Origin: Giardia intestinalis
Taxonomy: Eukaryota
Direction: 5' to 3' (one strand)
DNA: 64,000 nucleotides
Assembly: GCA_000002435.2 (NCBI GenBank)
Contig: CM018790.1
Program-made: the position numbers and the translations under genes
In this document: positions 3,097 through 44,330 of the stretch, piece by piece
How the letters are laid out: each line of letters begins with the position of its first letter
Position numbering within the stretch: position 1 is the first letter of the stretch
Notes under the pieces: model-generated
Database searches by the model: none
Seen by the model: only the letters and a program-made list of their open reading frames with translations
Told to the model about the DNA's origin: nothing

Positions 3097-4527
3097 TCAC
3101 TCGTTGAAGATGGCCCACAAGGACCGAGATTCTTGCTCGTGCTCGTACTCATAGTCCACCTCGCTACTGACAGCGTTGTGGAGGCTCGACTCGCTCCGGA
3201 AAGAGTCTAGTGCCCCTCCTTCCAAGTGGCTAGCGAGGTCTTCACGAATACTGGCAGGCAATCCGCGATCGTTGCGCACGCTTTCTGCAGCAGTGAGCCC
3301 GCTATGCTCAGCTCGCTGTCTTTTACGTTGCACAGAAGCATCCTCTTCTGGATCGACAGTTCCCTCTCTTGCTGCTTGAAGAGCGCGATAAAAGTCTCCG
3401 TGCTGAGCATCAAATAACTGAAGCTTTGCTTGCCTGACACCTGCAGGAGCAATATATTCCTGAATAGAGATGTCGCTTGCCAGACTCAAATCAATTGGTA
3501 TGGACATTGCAGTCGCCTGTGCGCCCTGAGCTAAAAGCGATCCTAGACTTGCCAACTGTTCGTGTGCTGCAGATTCTGCATAGTGCCGATGGTAAAGATG
3601 TCTGCGTACAAGAGATGGGGGCCGTACGTCTACGCCCTCAAGGTCGAGGTCTACATTACGAAGAACATCACCAATGGTTAGCTTGGCGAATAGCTCTGAT
3701 GATTGCATTTCTTGGAGACGGCGCGCAATGGTGTCTGGAGAACAAAAGACACAGCGGGAAATGCGATGAATGGGTATCCCATAGTTTAGTAACTTAAGCG
3801 CAACAAAAATACTGGCGCCTAACAAGCCTGATGGAAGCCTGCCGGTGTGAATATTAATAGCGGTAGAGGCCTTAAGAATGTACTTAGATACAACAAGAGT
3901 ATGCTCACGGAGCTGATCCACAGATGTTATGTGGATATTAGCGAAAAGCATACAATCTCTGTTGTCTTGAAATGCAGTCGTGAACTCTTCTTTCAGAATA
4001 CTATCCACAAACCGTGGTAACAGTGATTCAAGATCCTGGTAAGGTAGCTTGATATTATATTGACGCAGAAATGGCTGTATGTACTTGTTGAGCGTGAAAA
4101 CAGAAACGTTAAGAGCATCTGCATAGTCTATCAGAAGATGGGAGAGGTTGTGCTGTCGCCCCACAATGTAAAGAAGAGCTGCTGCCAAGAGATTGTTTCT
4201 CCGTCCTCTCGTTGCTTTGTCGCGCAGACAATTGGCATAGTAGTCGCTGGCTTTCCGAACAAGCTCCATTGGTAAATTTAGAATCATTGCAATTGTCTCT
4301 AGCTCCTTGGAAAAGTGTTTGATTGCAAGACTGCGAGCCGTGGAGGAGGTGTTAGCGCTTATGAAGTTCCCCATCACGGTGGACACACCATTTTGATCTT
4401 GGTAGATTAGATCATTGACAATGAGAGTGTCCATGATTACAAGCCCACAGTTACCACAGAACACTTTTGCTTGGCCCTCGTCAGTTATCGTGCTATTGGA
4501 AAGGCAAAATGGACATGAAATGGACAT
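3097..4527 (-). CDS. TFIIB-related transcription factor (TFIIB/BRF family; the C-terminal extension suggests a Pol III Brf1-like factor)
   Basis: The N-terminus has a zinc ribbon (CPFC...x17...CGNCG). This is followed by a TFIIB-type cyclin-fold core (LLAAALLYIVGRQHNLSHLLIDYADALNVSVFTLNKYI). The 476-aa length, with about 150 extra C-terminal residues, fits BRF. Confidence 0.6.
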   Translation of the reverse strand: MSISCPFCLSNSTITDEGQAKVFCGNCGLVIMDTLIVNDLIYQDQNGVSTVMGNFISANTSSTARSLAIKHFSKELETIAMILNLPMELVRKASDYYANCLRDKATRGRRNNLLAAALLYIVGRQHNLSHLLIDYADALNVSVFTLNKYIQPFLRQYNIKLPYQDLESLLPRFVDSILKEEFTTAFQDNRDCMLFANIHITSVDQLREHTLVVSKYILKASTAINIHTGRLPSGLLGASIFVALKLLNYGIPIHRISRCVFCSPDTIARRLQEMQSSELFAKLTIGDVLRNVDLDLEGVDVRPPSLVRRHLYHRHYAESAAHEQLASLGSLLAQGAQATAMSIPIDLSLASDISIQEYIAPAGVRQAKLQLFDAQHGDFYRALQAAREGTVDPEEDASVQRKRQRAEHSGLTAAESVRNDRGLPASIREDLASHLEGGALDSFRSESSLHNAVSSEVDYEYEHEQESRSLWAIFNE

Positions 4528-4592: not shown

Positions 4593-4877
4593 TGCTGTGC
4601 TGCCAGATTTACCTGCGGGTATGGTCTAGCAATCTTGTGGGTAAATTGTCGCTTAATTCCTAGCCAATCCGGAGACGACTGTTGGTCATTGATAACATAA
4701 CAAGAGGGTCCTCTCCAGTGATACATCCAGGGCCCGGTACATTTCTCTTCCGTTTCATGGGCGTGTGCTCTGTCTGGATGTGCACGTCAGCCTACCTAGG
4801 ATTCAACTTACTTGCCCATCTGCGTCGTCCACCAGTGATTTCTCTCCTTGGTCTACCGCTCTGATGGTGGAGGGTCT
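4593..4877 (+). repeat. Copy A of a diverged dispersed repeat (about 72% identical to 10064-10358). It is the leading part of a roughly 950 bp ORF-free block, 4528-5495
   Basis: I aligned the two copies by eye. Shared blocks include ccggagacgactgttggtcattgataacataac versus ccggagacaaaggttggttgtggatgatataac, and cgtcgtccaccagtgatttctctccttggtct versus catcgtccaccagtggcgcctctccttggtct. No reading frame is conserved between the copies. Confidence 0.5.
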
Positions 4878-5495
4878 TAACAGTTGATGTTCCTGGACCG
4901 ACGCCTCGACAGACCGAAGCATCACCCAAGTGTGCTGTGCAGATGGACCAGCCCACACGTCACCGAGCCAGACGCACTGCACAGGGTGAGCGTCGACATG
5001 ATCTCGCGCTGGATGGTGGAGCACCTCTGCGATCCGTGAGCAGAGGGTCATACTTCTCCCCCGACACCACCGCATAGGAGCTGTCCACTGGCATCCACGA
5101 ATGCGTACTATGACTCCAAGATAGAGGCGCACGGGGAGCGCACCTCCGATCATACTCGGGACCGATGCTCGCTTCATGAGAAGACGAAGAGGCACCCGAG
5201 GAACGGGGTAGATACCCGGGGTCGCGGTGTGCAATCTCCGTCGTAGAGCATCAGCACCACAAAGCTACTCCGGAGTGCATGGCCAGAGTCAACTGCTCTG
5301 AGGCCAGATCGCCGCGACAGACGCAAGGCCCGAGACAGCGGGTGCTCAATAGATGTCAGACGATAGCTGACCCAAGCCAGTCAGAGAGAAGAGACGCCCC
5401 GGAGCGCATAGTGGAGCACCCAACGGCTCCCAGGCGGGATGCACAAGGCTCTTCTCCAGAGTGGGCGGCATCCGAGCTTCGGACTCTGGACGGGT

Positions 5496-7633
5496 TTACT
5501 CGGACAGGAGCTGGCAAGCCGACATTGTTGAAACAGAGTAGATCTCGTTTGGGAGGATGCCTACTATCTCCATGCGATCCTTCTTCTTAGCGATATTGAG
5601 GGCAGTGGTACCGGGCGAGTGACCATGGCAGCTGCAGGTTGTCTTCAGATCTTTCTCGTTTTCCTTAAGAAGTCTTGCACACTCCACGGTGTTACTATAT
5701 GCCGCACTCATAAGGGCGATCTCCCTTGGTCGTTTGCATGCCGCCTTCCTCCTTCATTAGGAGCCTGACGCACTCTGGATGATCATTGCACACCGTCCAT
5801 GTGAGGACAGTCTGATGCTCGTTGTTCCTTATGCCAGTCTCCTGCTCGAGTAGCTCTACGATTCCTTCGTGCCCTCGTGCTGCTGCATACATGAGCTCCG
5901 TCCACCCTGAGATACTGCTCTCATACTCCATCAAAAGCTCAACGTGCCCAATATAGTCCACCAGGGGGTCATTGGAACGGTCGCACCGTGCCGCGAATAC
6001 GAGAGCGGCCCAACCGCCTACTTTCTCTCCCTTTTCGTGCTCTGCTAGCAGTTCTACTATTTCTGCGTATCCATTGCCGCAGCCATCATCAGAGCTGTTC
6101 CTTTGCGCATGTACCATCCGCTTCTTGTGACCTCTTTGTATGTTTTCCTCCCCCTCTGGATGGGTAAGAGTGCTTTTACAGCCCCCGCGTCGTTTCTATT
6201 GACAGCTCGCATGAGCGCCGTGACGCCGTTCTCATCGGTTGGGTCGATGGCCTCCACCACGGTTCCATGTCCTGCCTCTGCCGCAATCACCAAGGCCGTC
6301 TTGCCTTCGCTGCCGATCCGGTCCTTCTCATATGGGACCAGAAGGGAGGCAGCTCTTGCATAGTCCTCCTCTGTGGCGATCATCAGGTAGTCCAGCCATT
6401 CTTGTCCTGGAGACCGTTCTCCTCCCCAACAAGCAACTCGACGGGACTGATGCGCCCCTGCTCGTCGCGCTGACCAACACCGAGTCTTTCTTCAAGCAGC
6501 ATCCAGACGGTCTCCGTGCTATTCGTATGCGCGGCACGCATCAGCCCGGGCAACAAAAAGAGGCTGGACTGAGGGTCAGTCGTGTTCATCCTGTCATCGA
6601 ACTGTGCAAGCTTATTCTCCAGTGCCTTAATCATAGCTAGATGTTCCTTGCACTGATCTTCAAGTGCGTCGATCTAGTGGATTTAGTCTTAACATCCTCT
6701 TCCAGCAGCGCGATCCTGGCGTTAGCGCCATTCAGCGCAGCCTCCAAGGATCTGCACCTGTACCTCAGCATCACGCACTGACCCCCCAGCTCACTAACTG
6801 GGATGTCGAATGTAGCGAGCGTCTCGTGCAGCTCCCTGGCCGTCGGCCTCCTTCCAGGATCCAGCACGAATATCCCCTCCAGAACATTCTGCATGAAGCC
6901 ATCAGTGACACCGCTCAGGTCCGGCCTCCATCCATCAACGAAGACCTCTGCTGGCTCCTTGCCCCCCAAGAAGTTTGGTCTCCTCAGAGTAGTAAGTTCA
7001 TAAATGATGACCCCGAGGCTCCACACGTCGGAAGCATGGCTGGTCTCATTACGGAGGAGAATCTCGGGGGCCATGTATACTGCCGTGCCTGCAATGGTGC
7101 TCCCGCATCTCAGGGCGTCCTTACAGAGGCCGAAGTCGGCGATGATGAAGTGTTCACCATCTGCGCTGACGAGGACGTTCGCAAGCTTGAGGTCGCGGTG
7201 GACGAGGCCCTTGTAGGGGCGACCGTCGGCACCCACTCCGCTGAGGCCGTGGAGGTAGGCGAGGGCGGCGGCGACCTGCTTCATGACAGAGAGGATCACA
7301 GCGATAGGGACGGGGATCTTCCTTCGTTTGTGCTCGGTGAGGAGGCGCTCAAGGGTCTTGTCGTGCCGGTCCGTGACGACGTAGATGAGGCCCTCGTCTT
7401 CAATCACTTGATGATACTTGAGGACCCGGGTGAAAGATGTTAAGAAGGGCGGCCAGCCTACGCTTAATAGCATCCACACCGTGCTGATCCAGACCGTCGA
7501 GCCGGATCTCCTTCACAGTGAGGTGGGGGCATCCCTTGGGAGAGTAGATAACACTGAAGGCCCCCGCTGAGCACGGGGATGCCACCAGCGCCCATCGGCT
7601 CTGCAAAGCCGCTAACTGCACTGTTACTAGCAA
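5496..7633 (-). pseudogene. NEK-family protein kinase with C-terminal ankyrin repeats, broken by at least 5 frameshifts
   Basis: Six consecutive minus-strand ORF fragments (7400-7633, 6637-7479, 6383-6634, 6057-6383, 5695-6117, 5496-5711) lie in frames 1,0,1,2,0,2. The kinase N-lobe (GAFSVIY...VKEIRL...HPG) shifts frame into subdomains V-XI (YVVTD...HRDLKLANVLV...DFGLC...YMAPE). Ankyrin-like repeats follow (TALVIAAEAGHGTVVEAI, TELMYAAARGHEGIVELL). Confidence 0.55.
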
Positions 7634-8263
7634 CTCCTAGGGCGCCCTCTGCGGTGGCTGGGACAGGGAGTGGAGTCAACAGCCATCGCTAATCTTAACG
7701 CAATCCGGAGCCACCCTTTGGAGTGGCCTTGGCTACTGCCCGAGCAAGGCGCCCAGTGTGAGCTGCCGATGACAGGCCAAGGAGGGCATACTCGCGGCTC
7801 GTATGGTCCTAAGCAGGTCGGATTCTGGAGGCTAACACGGAGCGCCCCGACAAAACACGCCGACTGGGGACCACACTGAGCTCTGGATGCATCAATAGAG
7901 AGAAGCTCTTAGTATGTTATCCACAACCAGACCTCGTCTCCGGACGGCTGGGAAGTGAGCGCGGCTTACCCGTGGGACCTCTGAGCGCACCTGCAGGCGG
8001 CCCCAGCGATACAGTGACGGCAATGTACAGGAGTGCACCCCGAGCAATCACTCCACAAGAGAGGTGCGATTTGAGTCTGGCCCTCACTGGTCCTGTTCCT
8101 ATGGAAGTCAGAGAGAACTACACTATCAGCTGGCCTCCAGTGAGCGTGCTCCTATCTTGTCCTTCTTCAGTCCAACTGGTTAAGGGAGCAAGAGCAGCTG
8201 TCTCTCACTGCTCGCGGCAACACATCAGCCTGACAGAAGAGCAGTGGCATACTAACCCGGCTA

Positions 8264-10027
8264 ATGTTGGTAGGATTTCTCCTAGTTTGTGCAACAGTGC
8301 TGGCAAAGGACAGCGGGAAGGACACATGCTTCCCGGGATACACCCTCAACCCCACCACGAAGAAGTGCGACAGGAACTCCGCGCCGTGCGAGGTCGAGGG
8401 CTGTGATGTCTGCGAGGAAAGCAACCCCCAGCAGTGCAAGACGTGCGGCTCAGGCTACACCCTCAACCCCACCACGAAGAAGTGCGACAGGAACTCCGCG
8501 CCGTGCGAGGTCGAGGGCTGTGATGTCTGCGAGGAAAGCAACCCCCAGCAGTGCAAGACGTGCGGCTCAGGCTACACCCTCAACCCCACCACGAAGAAGT
8601 GCGACAGGAACTCCGCGCCGTGCGAGGTCGAGGGCTGTGATGTCTGCGAGGAAAGCAACCCCCAGCAGTGCAAGACGTGCGGCTCAGGCTACACCCTCAA
8701 CCCCACCACGAAGAAGTGCGACAGGAACTCCGCGCCGTGCGAGGTCGAGGGCTGTGATGTCTGCGAGGAAAGCAACCCCCAGCAGTGCAAGACGTGCGGC
8801 TCAGGCTACACCCTCAACCCCACCACGAAGAAGTGCGACAGGAACTCCGCGCCGTGCGAGGTCGAGGGCTGTGATGTCTGCGAGGAAAGCAACCCCCAGC
8901 AGTGCAAGACGTGCGGCTCAGGCTACACCCTCAACCCCACCACGAAGAAGTGCGACAGGAACTCCGCGCCGTGCGAGGTCGAGGGCTGTGATGTCTGCGA
9001 GGAAAGCAACCCCCAGCAGTGCAAGACGTGCGGCTCAGGCTACACCCTCAACCCCACCACGAAGAAGTGCGACAGGAACTCCGCGCCGTGCGATACTCCC
9101 AACTGCAAGGCCTGCGACAACCCCAAAACAGACAACGAAATCTGCACTGAATGTAATGATAACAATTATCTCACTCCAACCAGTCAGTGCGTATCTGACT
9201 GCACGACCCTCAAGGGCTACTACGGAGACGATAGTGGCAAAAAGACATGCAAGAGGTGCAACGATGCGTGCGCAGAGTGTAAGGGTGAGGGTGCTGATAA
9301 GTGTACGGCCTGCCCTGCTGGGAAGATGCTTCAGTATACAGATGCTGATACTCCTGCCAATGGGGGCACGTGCATGAACCAGTGCAGCGTGAGCCCTGCA
9401 AACGATGGATGCGCAGAGTGTGGGGCCCAAATAGGAGGAACTGCATATTGCTCAAAGTGCAAGAACACTCAACAGGCACCACTGGATGGCAACTGTGCGG
9501 CCAATACGCGAACACGATTTTGCACTACGGTGAGTAATGGAGCATGCACTCAATGTGAAAATAACTACTTCCTCAAAGATGGCGGTTGCTATCAAACAAA
9601 TAGACAGCCTGGTAAACAAGTGTGCACCCAAGCTAACGGAGGAAAGTGTCAGACATGTGCCAATGGCTTAGCAGCAACTGATGGCAACTGTGCAGAATGT
9701 CATCCTACTTGTGCTACGTGCTCGACTGCAGGTACGGCTGACAAGTGTAAGACCTGTGCCACTGGGTATTACAAGGAAAACGGTAGCGATACCACTACTG
9801 GGTTATGCAAGAAGTGCTCAGAGAAGATCTCTGGATGCAAGCAATGTGTGTCATCATCTGGCAGTTCAGTCATATGTTTAGAATCAGAAGTAGGCACTGG
9901 TGGAAGCGTCAACAAGAGCGGCCTCTCCACGGGGGCCATCGCGGGGATCTCCGTTGCTGTGATTGTTGTCGTCGGAGGGCTTGTCGGATTCCTTTGCTGG
10001 TGGTTCCTCTGCCGCGGGAAGGCGTAG
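8264..10027 (+). CDS. vsp: Variant-specific surface protein (VSP)
   Basis: It has a signal peptide (MLVGFLLVCATVLA) and is Cys-rich, with many CXXC motifs and a GGCY motif. The C-terminus has a transmembrane helix and the canonical tail GFLCWWFLCRGKA-stop. It contains internal tandem repeats. Confidence 0.85.
   Translation: MLVGFLLVCATVLAKDSGKDTCFPGYTLNPTTKKCDRNSAPCEVEGCDVCEESNPQQCKTCGSGYTLNPTTKKCDRNSAPCEVEGCDVCEESNPQQCKTCGSGYTLNPTTKKCDRNSAPCEVEGCDVCEESNPQQCKTCGSGYTLNPTTKKCDRNSAPCEVEGCDVCEESNPQQCKTCGSGYTLNPTTKKCDRNSAPCEVEGCDVCEESNPQQCKTCGSGYTLNPTTKKCDRNSAPCEVEGCDVCEESNPQQCKTCGSGYTLNPTTKKCDRNSAPCDTPNCKACDNPKTDNEICTECNDNNYLTPTSQCVSDCTTLKGYYGDDSGKKTCKRCNDACAECKGEGADKCTACPAGKMLQYTDADTPANGGTCMNQCSVSPANDGCAECGAQIGGTAYCSKCKNTQQAPLDGNCAANTRTRFCTTVSNGACTQCENNYFLKDGGCYQTNRQPGKQVCTQANGGKCQTCANGLAATDGNCAECHPTCATCSTAGTADKCKTCATGYYKENGSDTTTGLCKKCSEKISGCKQCVSSSGSSVICLESEVGTGGSVNKSGLSTGAIAGISVAVIVVVGGLVGFLCWWFLCRGKA
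8342..9091 (+). repeat. Tandem repeat of a 117-bp unit, about 6.4 copies, apparently identical, inside the VSP coding sequence. Each unit encodes 39 aa (TLNPTTKKCDRNSAPCEVEGCDVCEESNPQQCKTCGSGY)
   Basis: I read the period directly from the sequence and from the protein repeats. The seventh copy is truncated after ...RNSAPC. Confidence 0.85.
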
Positions 10028-10977: not shown

Positions 10978-13900
10978 TTAAATATCAGAACTGCCTGTGC
11001 TACACTGCCCAATTGATGTATTGCTACTTGTGACGCCAGAGGCTTTATTGACATGCATTGTGGATGGAACAGTGGATTGTATTGCTAACAGATTTGCCAA
11101 GGGAGCCGATTGGGCTATATCGGAAGCACTATGAGTGGAAGACGTATCTGAAATACTTGAAGGAGCCTTTGCTTCAACCACGTCTGTAGTTATCTTAATA
11201 GTTGATGTCTTTTTCCGTGAGTCTACATGTGATGGTGTAGACGGTGAGCTGGTATTTGATTCCGCTATGGGGTCGTCTAAATTCGCTGGTCTCTGGTCAG
11301 TACTATTGCCAAGAAAGCACAACTTTGGTATTATGGGGTGTGCACTCATTGTTTTCGACTGAAGATCTGTATCATCGTCGTCTTGGTTAACTAAGCGAAT
11401 GCGTGTGATTGGTGTCTTGATACCTGCGGACTCTTTCGGAAGGGACTGCAAATTTAGTGCAGGAATTACTAGAGGGCTCCGTGGAGAAGTGGGGCGCAGC
11501 TGTGGCTTAGCATCGCTACCCGCTGGAGTCCCTGTCGAAGTGCTACTTTCTCCTTTCACAGTGAAATCATTCCATCGCGTCAGTTCGTACTGGATTGATG
11601 CATTTATCCAATGCAGTGGAAGATTGATGCGCCCTATCAAGAGAGTCCTAAGTCTCCGCAAGAAGAGACCCCTGGGGAAGCTGGATTCCTGTTTGCTAAG
11701 AACACACGGGTCCCATGAAATATGGCGCCCATACCGGTAAAGAAAACAATAGTGTGCGGTTAGTAGTTGAATGCGGCACAGATTGAAGCCTTGCATATCC
11801 ACCTCAGGCCGTGTACACTTGCAACAACAGCACATATATTGTGAGGTCCCATGACCGATATCTGGAAAGATAGTAGGCGGGGGGTATGAGTATCTGTACT
11901 CTGGAGTAGAGCCGACTAACGACTCTTGCATGCTGTTAATAGGCTCGTCTGCAGAAAAGTGGAGCGTAGAAAGAGTAGGAGGACGGGCCTGTTGCTGTTG
12001 ATTGGATGGCGTAATTGTGCTGTTATTAGTAACAATACTTGTTGTGCGTAGCTTGCTTAAGGATCCTGTTGTACGAGTTTGGCGTTTATTACGCATTAGT
12101 ATGATATCTGAAGCATTCTGCTGGTCATCTTCATTGTAGGGCTCATAGTAGAAGCTGTTATTCCTACTCACTATACTATGTTCTCCGTGAGGTTCATCAT
12201 CGACATTGTCGTCATCGATAGTTGTGCAAATCGAGTCATCAAAGATGCTTGTAAGACCTCCTACATCCTTTAGCTCTTTGCGGATCTGAGACGCCACAAT
12301 ACAATCCTCCAAAGAGCGTGTAAACATCCTATCCCGATATAAAAAGCGTTGCTCAGCCCCCATATCCTTGAAAATCTCTGGATTCCCTGTTTCAGTCGAG
12401 CTTTCTCGTTCCTTAAGACTGGTCTGCTTCTGGTGTCCTTCTATTCCTGCGAGTATTTTGCCTATAGCTGTTCTATTGTATAACTTGTTCCGCTGGATAT
12501 ACTTGTCATTCAATGCGGAATCAAGGGGCTTCTCCGGTTGCTCATCAACTACGTCTTGCTCTCTTTCAGGCTTAATACTACCAGAGAGATCAACGCTCTT
12601 CTGAGACATAGCGCTACTTATTGAGGCTTCTTTTGCATCCAGTTCTCGTAGTACCGGCGAGCTCGGCTCTGGCCTGGCATGAAATTGTTGTTGTTGTTGT
12701 TGTTGTTGCTGTTGCTGTTGAGGCGATTGATTTGGTGTGGACTTAGTATTCCGCGTGGGAGAAAGCACGCAGCTTTGTGATGTAGCTAGAGTGGAGAACT
12801 GGAAGGCGTTTCCCGGTAAACTACGTGCAGACGGTCTCTGTGAAAACGCCTTTGACTTCACCTGATTATGATCTGCAAGTGGAGCAGAGGTCATACTGAT
12901 ATGTTCAATTTCAGAAATTTCTTGAATATCCAGTTTGATCCCTGAAAGCGTCTTTGTGGACAGAGGAGGGTTGGAGTACAAGGGGTTAGAGAGCGCCTTA
13001 ATCGGAACCGATGCAGACGATTTGTGTTCTGAGAACCCAGCAGTTAATTGATTGAACGGGGAGCTTGCGCGACTGCTTTCTAATGACTCAGTTAAAGAAG
13101 AGCTAGCACTTTGCGCACTAATGTCAGAGTGCTGAAGCATATGCGGTTGACTTTGCACTTCTGCCACGGGAAAAAGAGGCCCAGGCTGGAAACTATTAAT
13201 ATCATCTTTTAGATAGTATTCTACGTCTCTCTCATTGCCCAGGGTCTCTGAGAAAGACCTGGTAAGCATCTGATACCATAGTCGCGTTCCCAATTCATAA
13301 AAGGACGATCCTACCGTTAGCGTAGTTAATCCATCAATTACGTTTTGCAACTGCATTCGCTTAAGCTTTGCAATGATGCTTCTAAGCGTGGGGCACTTTC
13401 TGATGGTGTTGAGGGTCTCCTGATCATCCAAATCGAAAAACGAGTTGGCATTATGGGCGTTTCCGTGAAGCAGACGAAGAGAAAACTCGACAGCATTCTG
13501 GGAGCTCCCAATATAAACATCCAAAGGGGATATCTTTTCAGACCAATCAAAATTATGAATATGGAGAATATTTTTCTCATCGACAAGGGCGTGAAGTACA
13601 TTTTCAAAGGAGTCGGACAGTATGGAGTCAAGGGTGTTCGACTCAGGTCCCTGTGAGCCATTCCCAGCCACACCATACTCTTGTCTCATAGAGGCATAAG
13701 CGTCGAGAAGAGGATGCTCAAAGCGGGCCGTGCTTTTGCTATCCAGTGAGGACACCCGCAAGTCGGGAGCTGAGAGAGAAACCTTGAGCGGTGGCGCAGA
13801 AGAGATTGGAGCCTGTTCGTGGGTTAGACTGCGCTGATATTTCTTGAGAAGCTTCTTGATGTAGTTGAAAATATGCTTACGACGGGGATAGAGGGATGCA

Positions 13901-16900
13901 GCCGACGACGCTTCAGCGACGAATTTCGAAGAATTAATAATCGACAGCAGTTGCTTGCTCCTTGTTCGTTCATTCAAAACAGGCGACGGAAGCCTGTATA
14001 GTAAGCTATCGGGGCTTCCATCATATAGTGATTCTGAGAGTACCCGTTCCAACAACGTTTTGACATGACGTGCCTCGTCCATTAGAGATACCGAGTTGCG
14101 CCTCACATTATCAGTGTGGAAAGTCGGCGAGGCTTTGGAGACCGTTTTCCGGTGTTCAAATATCCGGTCAACCATACAAATACCTGTGGATTTTCTGACC
14201 ACGTGTGCCTGTGCAATCTCAGGCACAGTAATATATACCGACTTATTAAACTCTGTGTCCGACAATAAATCAGATTGCCCTTCAGAGTCGAGACTAAAGG
14301 ACATGTGCCTGTTCAGAACATCACTGCTACTCATTGGACTCTTCGCTCTATTCTTTGAGCACAGCTCTGTTTTTGTTTTAAGCTTTTCTGAAGCGATGAT
14401 GTGGGCATGAGTATTAATCTTCTCCCCACTGGTAAAGTCATCTATGCGGTAACCTGTATGATTGAGCACATCATGTTTGGACTTTCTAAATAGCTTAGAA
14501 GAGAAGAGGGCCAGTGTGTTAGCCAGCAGAGGAATATCGGTGCACGTATAGATCATACTGTTGTCAATGGTGCTTGCAGTGATACACTTGCTATTATTAG
14601 CCAGCACGTATTGTCTGCGGCGCATAATTATCAGCATGTGAAACCGTCGGAGCTGATGGTAGTCTCTCTTCGCTTCTCTCCACAACGCACGGATGTTCCC
14701 AGACTTACTGGTCGCTACGGAGTGTGCGTGAGACAAAACAGAGTGCATCGTCGTTACACTGATGTCCGAAGTCCCCTTTGCCGGAATGCTCATTGGCAGC
14801 TTAAATTGTCTTGGATTGACAGCAGGATGATACATGCATTCAAACAGCGTGTATCTGTGACTTGGAATCTCGTCTAGAAGACCACACAGCAAGTCGGTAA
14901 TCAGCAATCCAAAGGTTCCACAGAGAGCAAAGGCTTCTTGGCTATACCTGTACAGAGGGGTTCGTCTGACCAAGCCTGTGAGTGAATGAAAAAGCATAAC
15001 TCCTGTTTGCCAAGCGTCTGCATGTACAGCTGAAAACAGGGAATGAGCCCTGTGTGGGTCGTGGTCACTACACGTCTGCATAACAGCGCGAGACTCGGGA
15101 GAAAGAATAGTCGGAGTCCCTGTGGAACTGCTAATAAAGTAGGTATTCCTTGGCATAGCCGGAAACGTGTTGATCTGTCTAATAGATGAGAGGTAGGATT
15201 GTAGTGCCTGCCCAACCTTGTTAGTCTCTATCGTCTCCTGAATGAAGTCTTCAATGCGGCTGATAGTGGAGAGAAGCGCAGCGTCTCGTTGTGACAGTGA
15301 GCTATTTGAAGTCTTAATTGAGCAATCAATGGCTGGCACCAACAAGGAGTTGTCAGCAGGGAAATCTGCGTCTAGATGGGTATGACCTTTGCATGTTTTC
15401 TCTGCAAGTCCAGTTCCATCGGGTGTTAAGTCAGTCAATTTCAAGCTCAGCGCGTCAGTGTGAAAAGCTTTTTGGAAGGTTGCCGCATGCGAATCATCGT
15501 CGAGCAAAGGAATGTCTACACAAGGCTCTAAGTTGCCTAAAAAGGCGTCCTTTTGGTCATCCAAGGAAAGAACCAGAGTAAGGCAAGAAGAGTGAAGCGC
15601 TCTTGTCACAGAACTTTTGTCACTAGTACGTGCAATATGAGCCGTATCAATGCTTGCATTGGGCTTTGCAGCAGTAACTGTTGCTTGTCGTAAGCTGAGA
15701 GTAGTATCCTTGCATGAAGAGTTGTTTGGTTTAATACTTATTTTGTCAAAAATAGGCTCCGACATATCAAATGATTGTGTCTCGTAGATTCCAGACATCC
15801 TGCATATCCCTATACTTCCATTAAGGGTGTCCATATCTATTTGTGAGGGCTTCAAAGACTGCTGTGAGTCGTCCAGCTTAGCTGCCTCAGTGCATATGGC
15901 AGTGCCCTCTTTGACTAAGATGTCAGCATTGAAGCTAAAGGCCGACGAAACTAAGTCGGCCTCTCTCCTAGATGAAGCATGCACACAGTCAGAATCCATA
16001 GAGGCTACTACATCATGACCCAACAAAAGGCTGCCTTCGTCTTCTTGTGGTAAAATACGTTGCCGCACAAGGTCATTAAAAAAGCATGTAAAGCTCTTGC
16101 GAAGAAGAGAAAGGTGTCTATTGTATATGCTTTTTAGTGTCTCTAGGACGGTCTGTGCTGTTGGTAGTCTGACCCCCTCTTCCTCGAGGATGATTGCAGT
16201 ATCAAAGTCACTGATCTTTGCACGGTAGGGTGCAGTATCCGAGTCCCCTAACAGATAGTACGTTATATCTGATGACTCTTTTAGTGATTGAAGTCTGTAC
16301 CGAGATCCGCTTGGAAGCAGCAAAGGAGAAAGAACGTTGTCATTGAGGCGAGAGGATATACGTGTAGGCCCTCTGGGCATAACAGTGGGCGGATTGGCGG
16401 CGGTTGGTAGTGCATTTTGTAAAGGAAGCTTCAAAGAAAGTGGGGGTATATTGTACCTATCTTTAGGGTCCCTCCTCAGCGTATTCTCAATTGGGTTGCT
16501 ATGAGATGGATCACTACTCAGAGCAGTACTTGCCAAGGGAGTGCTGGACTGAGATTGTACGGTCCCAACTGCAAAGTCACCTATTGTGCCTGAGGTGCTA
16601 GTAAAGAACAGGTCGGTCGTTCTGGGGACCTTCCGTGGAAGTAGCTTACTTGCAGGAGGTATCGGTGTCTTGAAATTGCTTTGAAGATCGGTGGTGATGA
16701 TGATGTTCTCTAATTTGATATCTTGGTGTACAACGTTGCAGAAGTGCATGTAGCAGAGAGCATCGACAACCTGATAGAAGAGTATCATGATCTTCTTTAG
16801 ATCTGCTGTGCGTACAACCTCCTGGAGGGTCCCCCCGTCACAGTACTCTATTATGAAAACGAAGTTATCATCATAGTTCATGGTGCACCGACCTGTGTTC

Positions 16901-17715
16901 TGATAGCGTGGAGTCAGGTTGGAGTCCAATTGGGAGCTACGGGCCGAGTATTGTTTGAGCTTACTGCCAGCCGATGGCATACGTCTATGGGCAAGCTCCG
17001 ATCCCTGGGTCAATGGTTTAGCAATACCATTAAGAGCCATCGGATTGTGCAAAAGAGGCTGCAAATCGGAGACAAGCTCTGGTTGTAGCATCCCCTTGGC
17101 GTTTGAGAGTTGATCAATAATAGATTGATACTTGCAGGGAAGCTCACATATCAGGTTGACCTGCTGTGCAATAGACAGGATTGTCTGAACCCACGGGGGC
17201 AAGCTTCCCGGTGTTACGGCGTACTGACCGGCAAACGTAGAACCAGGAATTAGGGACTCCATAGAGTTCTCCACAGAGCAAACATCAGCGTAAATAGGGT
17301 GATGCATCACCTCAATGAGGTTAAGAATAGATGGGTGTGCGGTGGTCAAGAAATCCATGACCCGGGAGCAATTCCAAAGGAATTTGTCCGCAGATTCCTG
17401 GGTTAAGAGCTTACGCCTCAGAGAAGTTCGGTTGATCATGCGCATGGCTGCTTTTTGCTCTGTAAGCGGGTTATGGCATAGTCTCACGTTGGCATAGGCA
17501 CCCCGACCGATTGTTCTCTGTATGATCCACTCGTTAATGCACACGTTCCCCTGGGCTGTCGTTGTAACCCAGATCCGATCCTTGACTGGAACTCGAAGCA
17601 GTCCTGGCAGAAATGGAGCAGAGATGCCTGTCAAAAGGTGGAAGACGCCTGTCGCTGACTCTGACGTACTAGATGTGCTGTCAGTACTTGCATGGTTCAC
17701 TTCATGCAAGGCCAT
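10978..17715 (-). CDS. Giant (2245 aa) protein with a split, divergent protein-kinase-like domain near the N-terminus and a long low-complexity region containing polyQ
   Basis: It has a glycine-loop-like IGRGAYANV...AMRMI. About 200 aa later there is HFCNVVHQDIKLENIII (HRD-like catalytic loop) and GDFAVG (DFG-like). The Q13 tract is encoded by a (TTG/CTG)n run at 12685-12723 on the plus strand. Confidence 0.55.
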   Translation of the reverse strand: MALHEVNHASTDSTSSTSESATGVFHLLTGISAPFLPGLLRVPVKDRIWVTTTAQGNVCINEWIIQRTIGRGAYANVRLCHNPLTEQKAAMRMINRTSLRRKLLTQESADKFLWNCSRVMDFLTTAHPSILNLIEVMHHPIYADVCSVENSMESLIPGSTFAGQYAVTPGSLPPWVQTILSIAQQVNLICELPCKYQSIIDQLSNAKGMLQPELVSDLQPLLHNPMALNGIAKPLTQGSELAHRRMPSAGSKLKQYSARSSQLDSNLTPRYQNTGRCTMNYDDNFVFIIEYCDGGTLQEVVRTADLKKIMILFYQVVDALCYMHFCNVVHQDIKLENIIITTDLQSNFKTPIPPASKLLPRKVPRTTDLFFTSTSGTIGDFAVGTVQSQSSTPLASTALSSDPSHSNPIENTLRRDPKDRYNIPPLSLKLPLQNALPTAANPPTVMPRGPTRISSRLNDNVLSPLLLPSGSRYRLQSLKESSDITYYLLGDSDTAPYRAKISDFDTAIILEEEGVRLPTAQTVLETLKSIYNRHLSLLRKSFTCFFNDLVRQRILPQEDEGSLLLGHDVVASMDSDCVHASSRREADLVSSAFSFNADILVKEGTAICTEAAKLDDSQQSLKPSQIDMDTLNGSIGICRMSGIYETQSFDMSEPIFDKISIKPNNSSCKDTTLSLRQATVTAAKPNASIDTAHIARTSDKSSVTRALHSSCLTLVLSLDDQKDAFLGNLEPCVDIPLLDDDSHAATFQKAFHTDALSLKLTDLTPDGTGLAEKTCKGHTHLDADFPADNSLLVPAIDCSIKTSNSSLSQRDAALLSTISRIEDFIQETIETNKVGQALQSYLSSIRQINTFPAMPRNTYFISSSTGTPTILSPESRAVMQTCSDHDPHRAHSLFSAVHADAWQTGVMLFHSLTGLVRRTPLYRYSQEAFALCGTFGLLITDLLCGLLDEIPSHRYTLFECMYHPAVNPRQFKLPMSIPAKGTSDISVTTMHSVLSHAHSVATSKSGNIRALWREAKRDYHQLRRFHMLIIMRRRQYVLANNSKCITASTIDNSMIYTCTDIPLLANTLALFSSKLFRKSKHDVLNHTGYRIDDFTSGEKINTHAHIIASEKLKTKTELCSKNRAKSPMSSSDVLNRHMSFSLDSEGQSDLLSDTEFNKSVYITVPEIAQAHVVRKSTGICMVDRIFEHRKTVSKASPTFHTDNVRRNSVSLMDEARHVKTLLERVLSESLYDGSPDSLLYRLPSPVLNERTRSKQLLSIINSSKFVAEASSAASLYPRRKHIFNYIKKLLKKYQRSLTHEQAPISSAPPLKVSLSAPDLRVSSLDSKSTARFEHPLLDAYASMRQEYGVAGNGSQGPESNTLDSILSDSFENVLHALVDEKNILHIHNFDWSEKISPLDVYIGSSQNAVEFSLRLLHGNAHNANSFFDLDDQETLNTIRKCPTLRSIIAKLKRMQLQNVIDGLTTLTVGSSFYELGTRLWYQMLTRSFSETLGNERDVEYYLKDDINSFQPGPLFPVAEVQSQPHMLQHSDISAQSASSSLTESLESSRASSPFNQLTAGFSEHKSSASVPIKALSNPLYSNPPLSTKTLSGIKLDIQEISEIEHISMTSAPLADHNQVKSKAFSQRPSARSLPGNAFQFSTLATSQSCVLSPTRNTKSTPNQSPQQQQQQQQQQQQFHARPEPSSPVLRELDAKEASISSAMSQKSVDLSGSIKPEREQDVVDEQPEKPLDSALNDKYIQRNKLYNRTAIGKILAGIEGHQKQTSLKERESSTETGNPEIFKDMGAEQRFLYRDRMFTRSLEDCIVASQIRKELKDVGGLTSIFDDSICTTIDDDNVDDEPHGEHSIVSRNNSFYYEPYNEDDQQNASDIILMRNKRQTRTTGSLSKLRTTSIVTNNSTITPSNQQQQARPPTLSTLHFSADEPINSMQESLVGSTPEYRYSYPPPTIFPDIGHGTSQYMCCCCKCTRPEVDMQGFNLCRIQLLTAHYCFLYRYGRHISWDPCVLSKQESSFPRGLFLRRLRTLLIGRINLPLHWINASIQYELTRWNDFTVKGESSTSTGTPAGSDAKPQLRPTSPRSPLVIPALNLQSLPKESAGIKTPITRIRLVNQDDDDTDLQSKTMSAHPIIPKLCFLGNSTDQRPANLDDPIAESNTSSPSTPSHVDSRKKTSTIKITTDVVEAKAPSSISDTSSTHSASDIAQSAPLANLLAIQSTVPSTMHVNKASGVTSSNTSIGQCSTGSSDI

Positions 17716-42008: not shown

Positions 42009-43118
42009 TTACTCGACCCAGCGGCCGCTTGCCGCCCGGAAGAGCCGGTCGAGGAGCGCGTCGGCAAGCCCCCGGGCAGGCTCTGGAGGCAGCGCGAGGA
42101 TGCACGCGGGCCCAAGCTTATCTGCCCGCCGCAGCGTCTCGAAGAGGCTTTGCGCAGCGGCCTCGAGTGTCGGCACGCTGTAGGCTCGCAAGATCCGTGC
42201 CGGCTCTGTGCCTTCTGGAAGAAGTCCGGCTAGACTTCTGAGGAGGGCATCAGGCTCCAGCTCTGCGAGAGCAGGATTGCAGTCAAGAATGACGACGAAG
42301 CCGTCGAGACGGGCCGGCAGGATGGCTCTAACAGCGCCTGGAAGCATAGGGCCTCCTTTCATGACAAGGTAACATTCAGTTCGCGGAGAGTAGTGTCGCA
42401 GAAACTGACCCGGCGAAGAGACTGCTTTCGTCTGAAGACCAGAGCTGGAAAGAGCACGTGTCTCAACGCGTATATAGTCCAAGGCGTTTGTCGGAAGAGT
42501 TGCAACTAGCATTTCTTCATTGACTTGGCCTCGACGCAGGATCGTCAAGCAATCCTTCTCGACCAACAGAACAGTGGACTCAATCCCTATGTCACAGCGT
42601 CCGCCATCGATGATCAGGAGGTCGCTATTAACAAACTCTGCAGCGACATCCTCTGCCTGCGTGGGAGAGATGCTCCCAAACATATTCGCGGAAGGGGCAG
42701 CGAGGGGCCGCGCAGCAAGCTCTAGAATAGCGCAGGCAACGGGGTGGCGAGGCATCCGTACACCGATTGTTTGGCTACCCGCTGTGACAATGGATGGGAC
42801 ACAAGGTGCGGCTGGAAGCACCATGGTGAGCGGACCCGGCCAAAATGCGGCTGCAAGGGCGTCGACTATTGAAGACAGCTCTACAGAAACCACAGCGACC
42901 ATAGGCAGTTGGGAAATATGCGATATATGAACAATGAGGGGATCGTTTGCGGGACGTTGTTTTAAGGTGAAGATCTTCGCGCATGCAGCTTCTGAAAGCG
43001 CGTCTGCAGCCAAGCCATACACTGTCTCTGTTGGTATAGCAACCAGCTCTCCACGCTGAAGGGCTCCTGCGGCATCAGCAAGCTCTGATTGGGTCGTGCC
43101 AAGGATGCGCGGAGGCAT
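42009..43118 (-). CDS. SUA5: Threonylcarbamoyl-AMP synthase (Sua5/YrdC family, with a C-terminal Sua5 domain) for t6A tRNA modification
   Basis: The YrdC core is LVAIPTETVYGLAADA...NDPLIVHIS...WPGPLTMVL...IGVRMPRHP. The track ORF start (43229) would overlap the upstream kinase gene. The internal ATG at 43118 (MPPRILG...) sits just after that gene's stop at 43132. Confidence 0.75.
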   Translation of the reverse strand: MPPRILGTTQSELADAAGALQRGELVAIPTETVYGLAADALSEAACAKIFTLKQRPANDPLIVHISHISQLPMVAVVSVELSSIVDALAAAFWPGPLTMVLPAAPCVPSIVTAGSQTIGVRMPRHPVACAILELAARPLAAPSANMFGSISPTQAEDVAAEFVNSDLLIIDGGRCDIGIESTVLLVEKDCLTILRRGQVNEEMLVATLPTNALDYIRVETRALSSSGLQTKAVSSPGQFLRHYSPRTECYLVMKGGPMLPGAVRAILPARLDGFVVILDCNPALAELEPDALLRSLAGLLPEGTEPARILRAYSVPTLEAAAQSLFETLRRADKLGPACILALPPEPARGLADALLDRLFRAASGRWVE

Positions 43119-43131
43119 TGAATTTTTCAGG

Positions 43132-44040
43132 CTATATTGCGAAGAACTGGTGCATAAGGGCGCGCTGAGCAGTAATACGGTCCTCAGGATTCCACGCAAG
43201 CATGTGTGCGAGGAGATCTGCCAACACATGACTGCAGCCGAGCTCTCTGCGAAGAGCTTCTCTAGCTTCAGCTAGCGTATAAATGTCGGCATCTGACACT
43301 GTCATGTTTTCGGTTATGAAGCGAGGCAAGGCATGCATGGCGCCTTTGCAGGCATCCGGCTTTAGGGGTTTTAGGAAGGCACAGATGAGCTGCAGCTGCT
43401 GAATCTCGGTGTCGCCGGGGAACAGAGGATCGCCCGTAAGCAGCTCAGCAAAGCAACAACCTGCTGCCCAGATGTCGATTGGAGGGCCATATCCGCTATA
43501 GTGCAGAAGGAGCTCAGGTGCTCTATACCACCGCGTGCTAACATAATCGGTATTTTGACGGGATCCCTGTGCCCTTGAAAGGCCAAAGTCAGCTATCTTT
43601 ACCCCAACAATGTCTCCGTTGGCATCTCCCGTCTCGCTCGTTAATAGAATGTTCTCTAGTTTCAAATCCCGGTGAATCACGCTGTTCGTATGGATGTGAT
43701 AGAGGCCCTGGAGAATGCGGAATGCAATGTTTCGTAGCATGTGCTCTTTGAGTGGTCCCGAAGATCGAAGAAAATTCAGGAGGGTACCTCCACCTGCGTA
43801 TTCGAAGATCAAGTGTGTGTGGTCCCTAGTGACAACTACTCGAATAAGGCGAATGATATTTGGATGGGGTGGAAGCCTCCGGAGCGTAGCTACTTCGGGC
43901 AGCTGGAGAGGATCAGAGACACAGAGGGTGTGACTGTTCATGATCTTGATGGCGACGAAATCCCCCTTCGTATCCACTGCGTGCAGGACATCCCCGTACG
44001 TGCCAGACCCCACGCGACGCACCGGCGTGTAGGCATCCAT
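43132..44040 (-). CDS. CMGC protein kinase with a TDY activation motif (MAK/ICK/LF4 RCK family or MAPK-like)
   Basis: Motifs are GSGTYGDV, VAIK, HRDLKLENILL, DFGLSR and TDYVSTRWYRAPELLL. The start was moved to the internal ATG at 44040 (MDAYTPV...), 20 nt after the RPL37e stop. Confidence 0.7.
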   Translation of the reverse strand: MDAYTPVRRVGSGTYGDVLHAVDTKGDFVAIKIMNSHTLCVSDPLQLPEVATLRRLPPHPNIIRLIRVVVTRDHTHLIFEYAGGGTLLNFLRSSGPLKEHMLRNIAFRILQGLYHIHTNSVIHRDLKLENILLTSETGDANGDIVGVKIADFGLSRAQGSRQNTDYVSTRWYRAPELLLHYSGYGPPIDIWAAGCCFAELLTGDPLFPGDTEIQQLQLICAFLKPLKPDACKGAMHALPRFITENMTVSDADIYTLAEAREALRRELGCSHVLADLLAHMLAWNPEDRITAQRALMHQFFAI

Positions 44041-44060
44041 CGGACCGACCTCGTGCAAAT

Positions 44061-44330
44061 TTACTTGGCAAGGTACTTCCTGGCGTTTGCCTTGAGCGTT
44101 CCCGAGTTGTAGGCCCTGTAGACCTTGCGCATGTGGGACATGCTGCCCGTCCCCTGTGTCCTTCTGCGGAGAGACTTGTAGCTCCAGTTGTACCTGCGCA
44201 TCTTGGCAGACGGGTACCCGCAAGACGCACACTCGTGCTTCTGTAGGTGGAAGGAGTGCTTGCCGCACCGGCGGCAGCTGCCGTGAATGCGCGTGTGGCG
44301 CTTACCGAACGACGCTGTGCCCTTGGACAT
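44061..44330 (-). CDS. RPL37: 60S ribosomal protein L37e
   Basis: MSKGTASFGKRHTRIHGSCRRCGKHSFHLQKHECASCGYP has the C4 zinc ribbon of L37e. The start is set at MSKGT (44330), preceded by ttaaaaacgggaactcgATG. The stop codon lies inside AGTAAAT, an AGTRAAY polyA signal. Confidence 0.85.
   Translation of the reverse strand: MSKGTASFGKRHTRIHGSCRRCGKHSFHLQKHECASCGYPSAKMRRYNWSYKSLRRRTQGTGSMSHMRKVYRAYNSGTLKANARKYLAK

Follow-up and report, generated by a model that had tools for sequence, protein, structure and literature searches.

A multiply broken Nek-GL4 kinase-ankyrin pseudogene between the BRF and VSP genes of Giardia intestinalis WB

Introduction

In Giardia intestinalis WB (ATCC 50803), about 2.1 kb between BRF, which encodes the 70-kDa subunit of TFIIIB, and a VSP gene reads as a NEK kinase with ankyrin repeats in repeatedly changing frames, and the question raised by this locus is whether it is a decayed gene, an intact gene obscured by errors, or a row of small genes. 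It lies on the minus strand of the 64,000 nucleotides (nt) of contig CM018790.1 (assembly GCA_000002435.2) that were analyzed here, which we call the window. An earlier note, made from the letters of this DNA alone, had described a decayed NEK kinase-ankyrin gene beside a VSP gene, and this description is borne out by Pfam domains, an exact match of the VSP and prior curation as a Nek-GL4 pseudogene. We regard it as highly probable that the locus is a multiply broken pseudogene of the unprocessed type, that it belongs to a duplicated family, the Giardia-specific Nek-GL4 kinase-ankyrin subfamily, and that its breaks are no product of sequencing error.

As a pseudogene, the locus has already been curated and published. 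Among the kinases of WB, Manning et al. (2011, Genome Biol 12:R66; PMC3218828) counted 30 pseudogenes, 29 of them in Nek-GL4, a subfamily with fast turnover and "rampant gene duplication and pseudogenization" (PMC3218828). Additional file 1 of that paper (PMC3218828) lists entry G086, GL50803_137735 (GK101), as Other/Nek/Nek-GL4, "Pseudogene," "N - multiple GiardiaDB," with 7 ankyrin repeats. Its published translation, '*ELLVTVQLAALQSRW...HPXVLKYHQVIEDEG...KTKSTXIDALEDQCKEHL...', agrees with the window residue for residue, with the same leading stop and with X marks at the frameshifts, so that the two are the same locus. Manning et al. (2011) gave for GL50803_137735 neither a comparison with assemblage A2 nor the mosaic sharing of lesions; added here are that mosaic among the copies and a divergence between WB and isolate DH about 37-fold that of the adjacent BRF.

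One gene in six fragments

Three-frame translation of the minus strand from about 7640 to 5496 gave a chain of six open reading frame (ORF) fragments that represent one gene in changing frames:

5496-7639, minus strand: whole Nek-GL4 kinase-ankyrin pseudogene, from an in-frame TAG (7639-7637) to the terminal TAA (5498-5496); equals GL50803_137735 / GK101
7400-7633, minus strand: fragment 1, kinase N-lobe, with a degenerate Gly loop 'SAGAFSVIY', the 'LTVKEI' lysine and 'HPG'; no ATG in frame; tblastn high-scoring segment pair (HSP) 7570-7424, frame -1
6637-7479, minus strand: fragment 2, rest of the kinase domain and start of the coiled coil; HRDLKLAN, DFG and APE retained; Pfam Pkinase, E = 3.2e-30
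6383-6634, minus strand: fragment 3, coiled coil and first ankyrin repeat (internally deleted); equals 2007 ORF GL50803_119991 (exact)
6057-6383, minus strand: fragment 4, ankyrin repeats; Pfam Ank_2, E = 1.6e-10; equals 2007 ORF GL50803_102617 (exact)
5695-6117, minus strand: fragment 5, ankyrin repeats; Pfam Ank_2, E = 8e-15; equals 2007 ORF GL50803_102842 (exact)
5496-5711, minus strand: fragment 6, last ankyrin repeat and C terminus; Pfam Ank_2, E = 1.2e-3; equals 2007 ORF GL50803_92401 (exact)

When started at its ATG, fragment 2 (6637-7473) is exactly the 2007 gene XP_001706213.1, "Kinase, NEK," of 278 amino acids (aa). The Pkinase profile PF00069 scored 105.8 bits on 6637-7479 (cut-off, 31.7) over profile positions 58-257 of 263, and the N-lobe is read in another frame than this fragment. 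The catalytic Lys ('LTVKEI'), the HRD Asp ('HRDLKLAN') and the DFG Asp ('ADFG') are accordingly all present in the conceptual translation, divided over two frames.

The fragments were joined into a 702-aa conceptual protein, which served as the query of a protein search. It gave hundreds of matches to Giardia NEK kinase-ankyrin proteins, the best full-length one being an intact 769-aa protein of isolate P15 (P0004; 58% identity, 99% coverage); no near-identical full-length protein was found in the protein database. Judged from sequence, the locus is a member of Nek-GL4: its top matches are all Giardia NEK-ankyrin proteins, and it is listed under that subfamily in Table S1 of Manning et al. (2011). 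Intact Nek-GL4 genes (P0004 in P15; GL50803_41687 in WB, with catalytic K, D, D) share its architecture of kinase, coiled coil and ankyrin (TALM) repeats, whereas the AT-rich initiator, the ATG and the single open frame that they possess are all three missing from the window copy. P0004 was used as a frame reference only; it was rejected as the syntenic counterpart, its neighbors being a reverse-transcriptase ORF, another NEK and a VSP.

Five frame changes and a missing 5' end

A tblastn comparison with an intact paralogue, as proposed in the earlier note and made here with P0004, returned six colinear HSPs running from 7570 to 5499 in frames -1, -2, -1, -3, -2 and -3. There are thus five frame changes, in line with the "at least five" of that note; they are not all of a single base as it had held, since only three are 1-nt deletions, the other two removing 2 nt each. 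The sites that it gave (7440-7480, 6634, 6383, 6117 and 5711) are ORF boundaries and lie up to about 50 nt away from the real indels, which we mapped by DNA alignment with the syntenic copy in DH (L019), a second DH copy (L011), a copy in an ENA contig (L023, an Illumina/MEGAHIT assembly) and the intact P15 gene (L012):

7426/7425, minus strand: lesion B, 2-nt deletion, frame -1 to -2; in WB only when set against the DH and ENA copies
6675/6674, minus strand: lesion D, 1-nt deletion, GG to G, frame -2 to -1; common to WB and the syntenic DH copy
6386/6385, minus strand: lesion F, 1-nt deletion, CCC to CC in 'GWTALM', frame -1 to -3; common to WB, the second DH copy and the ENA copy
6075/6074, minus strand: lesion G, 1-nt deletion, GCACATGG to GCAATGG, frame -3 to -2; common to WB and the syntenic DH copy
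5723/5722, minus strand: lesion H, 2-nt deletion in 'KGWTALM', frame -2 to -3; WB only
7210-7224, minus strand: 15-nt in-frame insertion (GRPYK region), within a 71-residue block identical to GL50803_41687; candidate gene-conversion tract

The second DH copy, the ENA copy and P15 do not carry lesion D, and at the site of lesion F the reading frame of the syntenic DH copy is unbroken. At the spot of lesion H, the second DH copy and the ENA copy carry a different deletion, of 1 nt. Lesion B is found again in the paralogous WB pseudogenes GL50803_119989 and GL50803_137737, as seen in the N terminus 'MLLSVGWPPFLTSFTR' of P0148 (= XP_001707132.1) and in 'HPXVLKYHQV' in Table S1 of Manning et al. 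(2011). Besides the five frame changes, 33 nt are missing in frame at about 6455 when the gene is aligned with that of P15, which leaves the first ankyrin repeat without its core ('DEQGR|ISPVELLV'); this deletion is common to all four assemblage-A copies (WB, two DH, ENA).

The 5' end of the gene is damaged as well. An in-frame TAG stands at 7639-7637, and the kinase frame contains no ATG ahead of the first frameshift; the same combination occurs in 4/4 assemblage-A copies. The first Met that had been placed at 7633 does not exist, because the codon there, the second after the TAG, is TTG (Leu). The accompanying claim that no AT-rich initiator precedes this point is right in substance: the A+T content of the 40 nt upstream of 7633 is 28%, against 59 +/- 11% at 20 other ORF starts of the window. 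Upstream of about 7580, identity to the 5' end of the P15 gene and its AT-rich initiator is 35-37%, which is the random level. The gene has lost both its promoter and its start codon. A sixth frameshift, between an ATG at 7595 (frame 0) and the kinase frame, was considered and rejected, since the in-frame TAG is where every copy and the published model start, and since nothing upstream resembles the 5' ends of intact GL4 genes. A scan for bacterial promoters and terminators found nothing; its models are bacterial and not relevant to Giardia.

Comparison with other isolates

The two neighbors of the pseudogene provide the reference points for a comparison between isolates:

3097-4527, minus strand: BRF (TFIIIB 70-kDa subunit), exact match to KAE8302258.1 / XP_001706220.1; conserved flank and divergence control
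8264-10027, plus strand: VSP gene, 587 aa, CRGKA tail, exact match to KAE8302259.1 / XP_001706212.1; divergent orientation, island flank

The order 2245-aa gene, VSP, pseudogene, BRF is kept in both WB and DH (assemblage A2) as a syntenic island. DH contig AHGT01000023.1 carries two cassettes of VSP, 97-aa ORF and broken NEK, about 64 kb apart (L011, 1-8555; L019, 66133-85563), and the pseudogene travels as a cassette with a VSP gene. The syntenic copy is L019; L011, which lies at the start of the same contig, was rejected as the DH orthologue. Like its WB counterpart, the syntenic DH pseudogene lies between VSP and BRF, carries lesions D and G, lacks the start and has the repeat deletion; unlike it, it is free of lesions B, F and H and has a 10-nt deletion of its own. 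It is in pieces of 329+192+83+133 aa, DHA2_154551 and DHA2_154553 among them. Private lesions exist in both DH copies: besides this 10-nt deletion of the syntenic copy, the second copy has a deletion of 46 nt. The pseudogene is older than the A1/A2 split.

Divergence between WB and DH is concentrated in the pseudogene and its surroundings. BRF differs at 4/1431 positions (99.72% identity), whereas the pseudogene has 224 differences over about 2143 aligned positions (identity about 89.5%), or about 37 times the BRF divergence, and the whole spacer between the two is 88% identical, against 99.7% in BRF. The VSP gene, the pseudogene and the spacer form a small variable island bounded by two conserved genes. 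Within the pseudogene, identity between WB and DH ranges between 72% and 97% when taken per 100 nt. Over several stretches of 100 nt the two DH copies match each other completely (100%), while each differs from WB, and these long identical tracts indicate concerted evolution within DH. Substitutions between WB and DH number 61:59:104 at codon positions 1:2:3; the first two positions are often affected, and an excess at the third persists. The comparison is confounded by gene conversion from paralogues, and its result could arise if relaxed constraint were combined with imported sequence that had earlier been under selection. The earlier note had called the loss of the ORF consistent with relaxed selection in a variable island; conversion between paralogues would account for more of the excess WB-DH divergence than relaxed selection by itself, and this divergence would reflect conversion as much as drift.

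In assemblage B (GS_B, AHHH01000039.1, L013 1-1937), the slot next to BRF is occupied by a VSP oriented as BRF and by a 233-aa ankyrin-only ORF, in which no kinase domain was found. This ORF matches the distinctive non-canonical ankyrin-tail segment 'MRAVNRNDAGAVKALLPIQRGRKTYKEV...' of the pseudogene at 34% identity. The match is a weak link, through which the locus may be older than the A/B split.

Are the lesions real?

The reality of the lesions was judged from assemblies and annotations. If the frameshifts were errors of sequencing or assembly (homopolymer miscalls or collapsed near-identical paralogues), the true gene would be an intact NEK of about 700 aa. Lesion F does shorten a small run of C (CCC to CC) and lesion D changes GG to G, and the region is repetitive, the listed Logan contigs with BRF all stopping at the edge of the island. 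Against errors speaks the recurrence of lesions D, F and G in the independently sequenced DH and ENA assemblies, and of lesion B in further WB copies; two of the lesions are, besides, 2-nt deletions in a non-homopolymer context, and no copy has an in-frame ATG. Five fragments are exact start-to-stop matches to separate ORFs of the 2007 Sanger-based annotation, the NEK kinase of 278 aa and four annotated as hypothetical proteins. In the 2020 PacBio assembly, homopolymer indels were corrected with 100x Illumina data (PMC7000408), and this corrected assembly still has no coding sequence (CDS) at the locus. Current annotation shows no protein-coding gene between BRF and VSP: their accessions, KAE8302258.1 and KAE8302259.1, are consecutive, and the PacBio and Illumina re-annotation therefore placed no CDS, and no intact protein, here. 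As a control of the error rate, about 49 kb of the window consist of intact ORFs of at least 250 aa, including ones of 2245, 1808 and 1672 aa, so that five frameshifts in 2.1 kb contrast with none evident in these uninterrupted ORFs. Manning et al. (PMC3218828) had moreover curated the locus as a pseudogene in 2011. We consider an intact gene hidden by errors very improbable; the earlier claim of decay instead of sequencing error agrees with the recurrence of the lesions, the 2007 ORFs and the intact control.

Hardly more probable is the view embodied in the 2007 annotation, namely, that the locus holds separate small genes, a truncated 278-aa "Kinase, NEK" and four small ankyrin proteins, each translated alone. 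Five fragments do start with ATG and were annotated (XP_001706213 and XP_001706215 to XP_001706218), and a low signal in serial analysis of gene expression (SAGE) is on record. The 278-aa ORF, however, opens with 16 out-of-frame residues and is without the whole N-lobe, and the regions upstream of the fragments are not AT-rich. Fragment boundaries vary between the WB, the two DH and the ENA copies, so that none of the small ORFs is conserved as a unit, and the fragments were removed from later annotation. Expression as one protein, with the frame restored by programmed ribosomal frameshifting, splicing or RNA editing, is extremely improbable, and the least probable of all. Nothing favors it other than the still recognizable kinase motifs, while five shifts of mixed sign would be required, an X XXY YYZ slippery heptamer is present at 0/5 sites, the sites of the shifts are not conserved between copies and there is no start codon.

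Several observations weigh against a decayed pseudogene. The HRD, DFG and APE motifs and a VAIK-type lysine are still present in the conceptual translation. The third-position excess (61:59:104) remains, so that either the coding signal has not fully decayed or functional paralogues have recently donated sequence by conversion. Some transcription is possible, given the low SAGE signal of the locus (R = 2.54, maximum 10.6; Manning table, PMC3218828). The exact match to the 2007 ORFs, finally, is circular for the WB-specific lesions at 7426/7425 and 5723/5722 if the window is the 2007 assembly. Taken as a pseudogene, the locus would yield no NEK protein, because of its five frame breaks and lost start. 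The pseudogene annotation should stay, in place of five small genes, and the frameshifts are to be read as biological; beyond such annotation housekeeping the significance of the locus is small.

Probable gene conversion among Nek-GL4 copies

The lesions are shared as a mosaic: WB has D and G in common with the syntenic DH copy and F in common with the non-syntenic one. A 71-residue block with the rare 5-aa insertion is identical to the catalytically competent Nek GL50803_41687 (sequence from Table S1 of Manning et al. 2011). Because of these two features, together with the excess WB-DH divergence and the identical tracts in DH, the pattern points to ectopic gene conversion among GL4 copies as the probable mechanism.

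Sister pseudogenes in WB resemble the window copy to different degrees. GL50803_137737 (GK102), GL50803_119989 (GK119; partly annotated as XP_001707132.1) and GL50803_104063 (GK140) have the same truncated N terminus, 'ELLVTVQLAALQSRWALVASPCSAGAFSVIYS', are located elsewhere in the genome and bear extra lesions of their own. The 2-nt deletion that follows 'HP(G)' is present in GK102 and GK119 too. In addition, GK119 has the 'DEQGRISPVELL' repeat deletion and the 'GWTT*' frameshift of the window pseudogene; unlike the latter, it reads through at the 6675 site. As the truncated N terminus is common to the three sisters, either the broken gene would have been duplicated after the loss of its 5' end, or lesions would have spread by conversion.

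We infer the following order of events. Loss of the promoter, the start codon and the first 45 or so codons would have come first, followed by small deletions that produced five frame breaks and by the in-frame deletion inside an ankyrin repeat. Some lesions would have arisen before the assemblage A1/A2 split and others in single lineages. The copies, at least four in WB and at least two in DH, probably keep exchanging sequence by gene conversion, which would spread or erase single lesions and raise the divergence between orthologues.

On account of the 71-residue block, the 100%-identical DH tracts and the mosaic of lesions, we put forward a broader and more doubtful proposal, in which we place rather less than even confidence: dead, VSP-linked GL4 copies could be in ongoing ectopic conversion both with each other and with functional GL4 Neks, as possible donors or acceptors that feed the turnover of the subfamily. 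The signs of concerted evolution fit the published picture of Nek-GL4, and gene conversion in the variable islands of Giardia could be studied on this locus as a small test case.

Other features of the island and the window

The flanking VSP gene contains, at 8339-9093 on the plus strand, 6.5 tandem copies, 100% identical, of a 117-nt (39-aa) unit, 'YTLNPTTKKCDRNSAPCEVEGCDVCEESNPQQCKTCGSG', and the perfect identity of these repeats implies very recent expansion or homogenization. The syntenic VSP ORF in DH has 206 aa only, compared with 587 aa in WB.

The spacer between the pseudogene and BRF (4894-5371) includes a non-coding element of 300-480 nt that recurs beside other VSP/NEK cassettes. 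It matches the second DH copy (L011, 3223-3702; 77%) and two places in P15 (L012, 4719-5026 and 12452-12772; 73-75%); no Pfam match was found for 4894-5371. Logan short-read contigs with the WB-type BRF (10 listed of 23) all stop 175-393 nt upstream of BRF, at about 4700-4920 of the window. Judged from these 10 listed contigs, Illumina assemblies break reproducibly at the edge of the VSP/pseudogene island, and none reaches the pseudogene.

No further copies of the pseudogene or VSP fragments were found elsewhere in the window. A second broken kinase, considered at 42-44 kb, was rejected in favor of two separate genes, a complete kinase and a Sua5/YrdC-type gene. On the minus strand there, the kinase ORF (42009-43229, 378 aa, with a mechanically assigned GTG start) and the Sua5/YrdC-type ORF (43132-44268, 406 aa) overlap by about 98 nt in a GC-rich stretch. 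Beyond the VSP gene, at 10978-17715 on the minus strand, lies the 2245-aa ORF, which is syntenic in DH; its Pkinase match is confined to residues 279-343 (profile positions 67-134 of 263), and it looks like a partial or highly divergent kinase domain.

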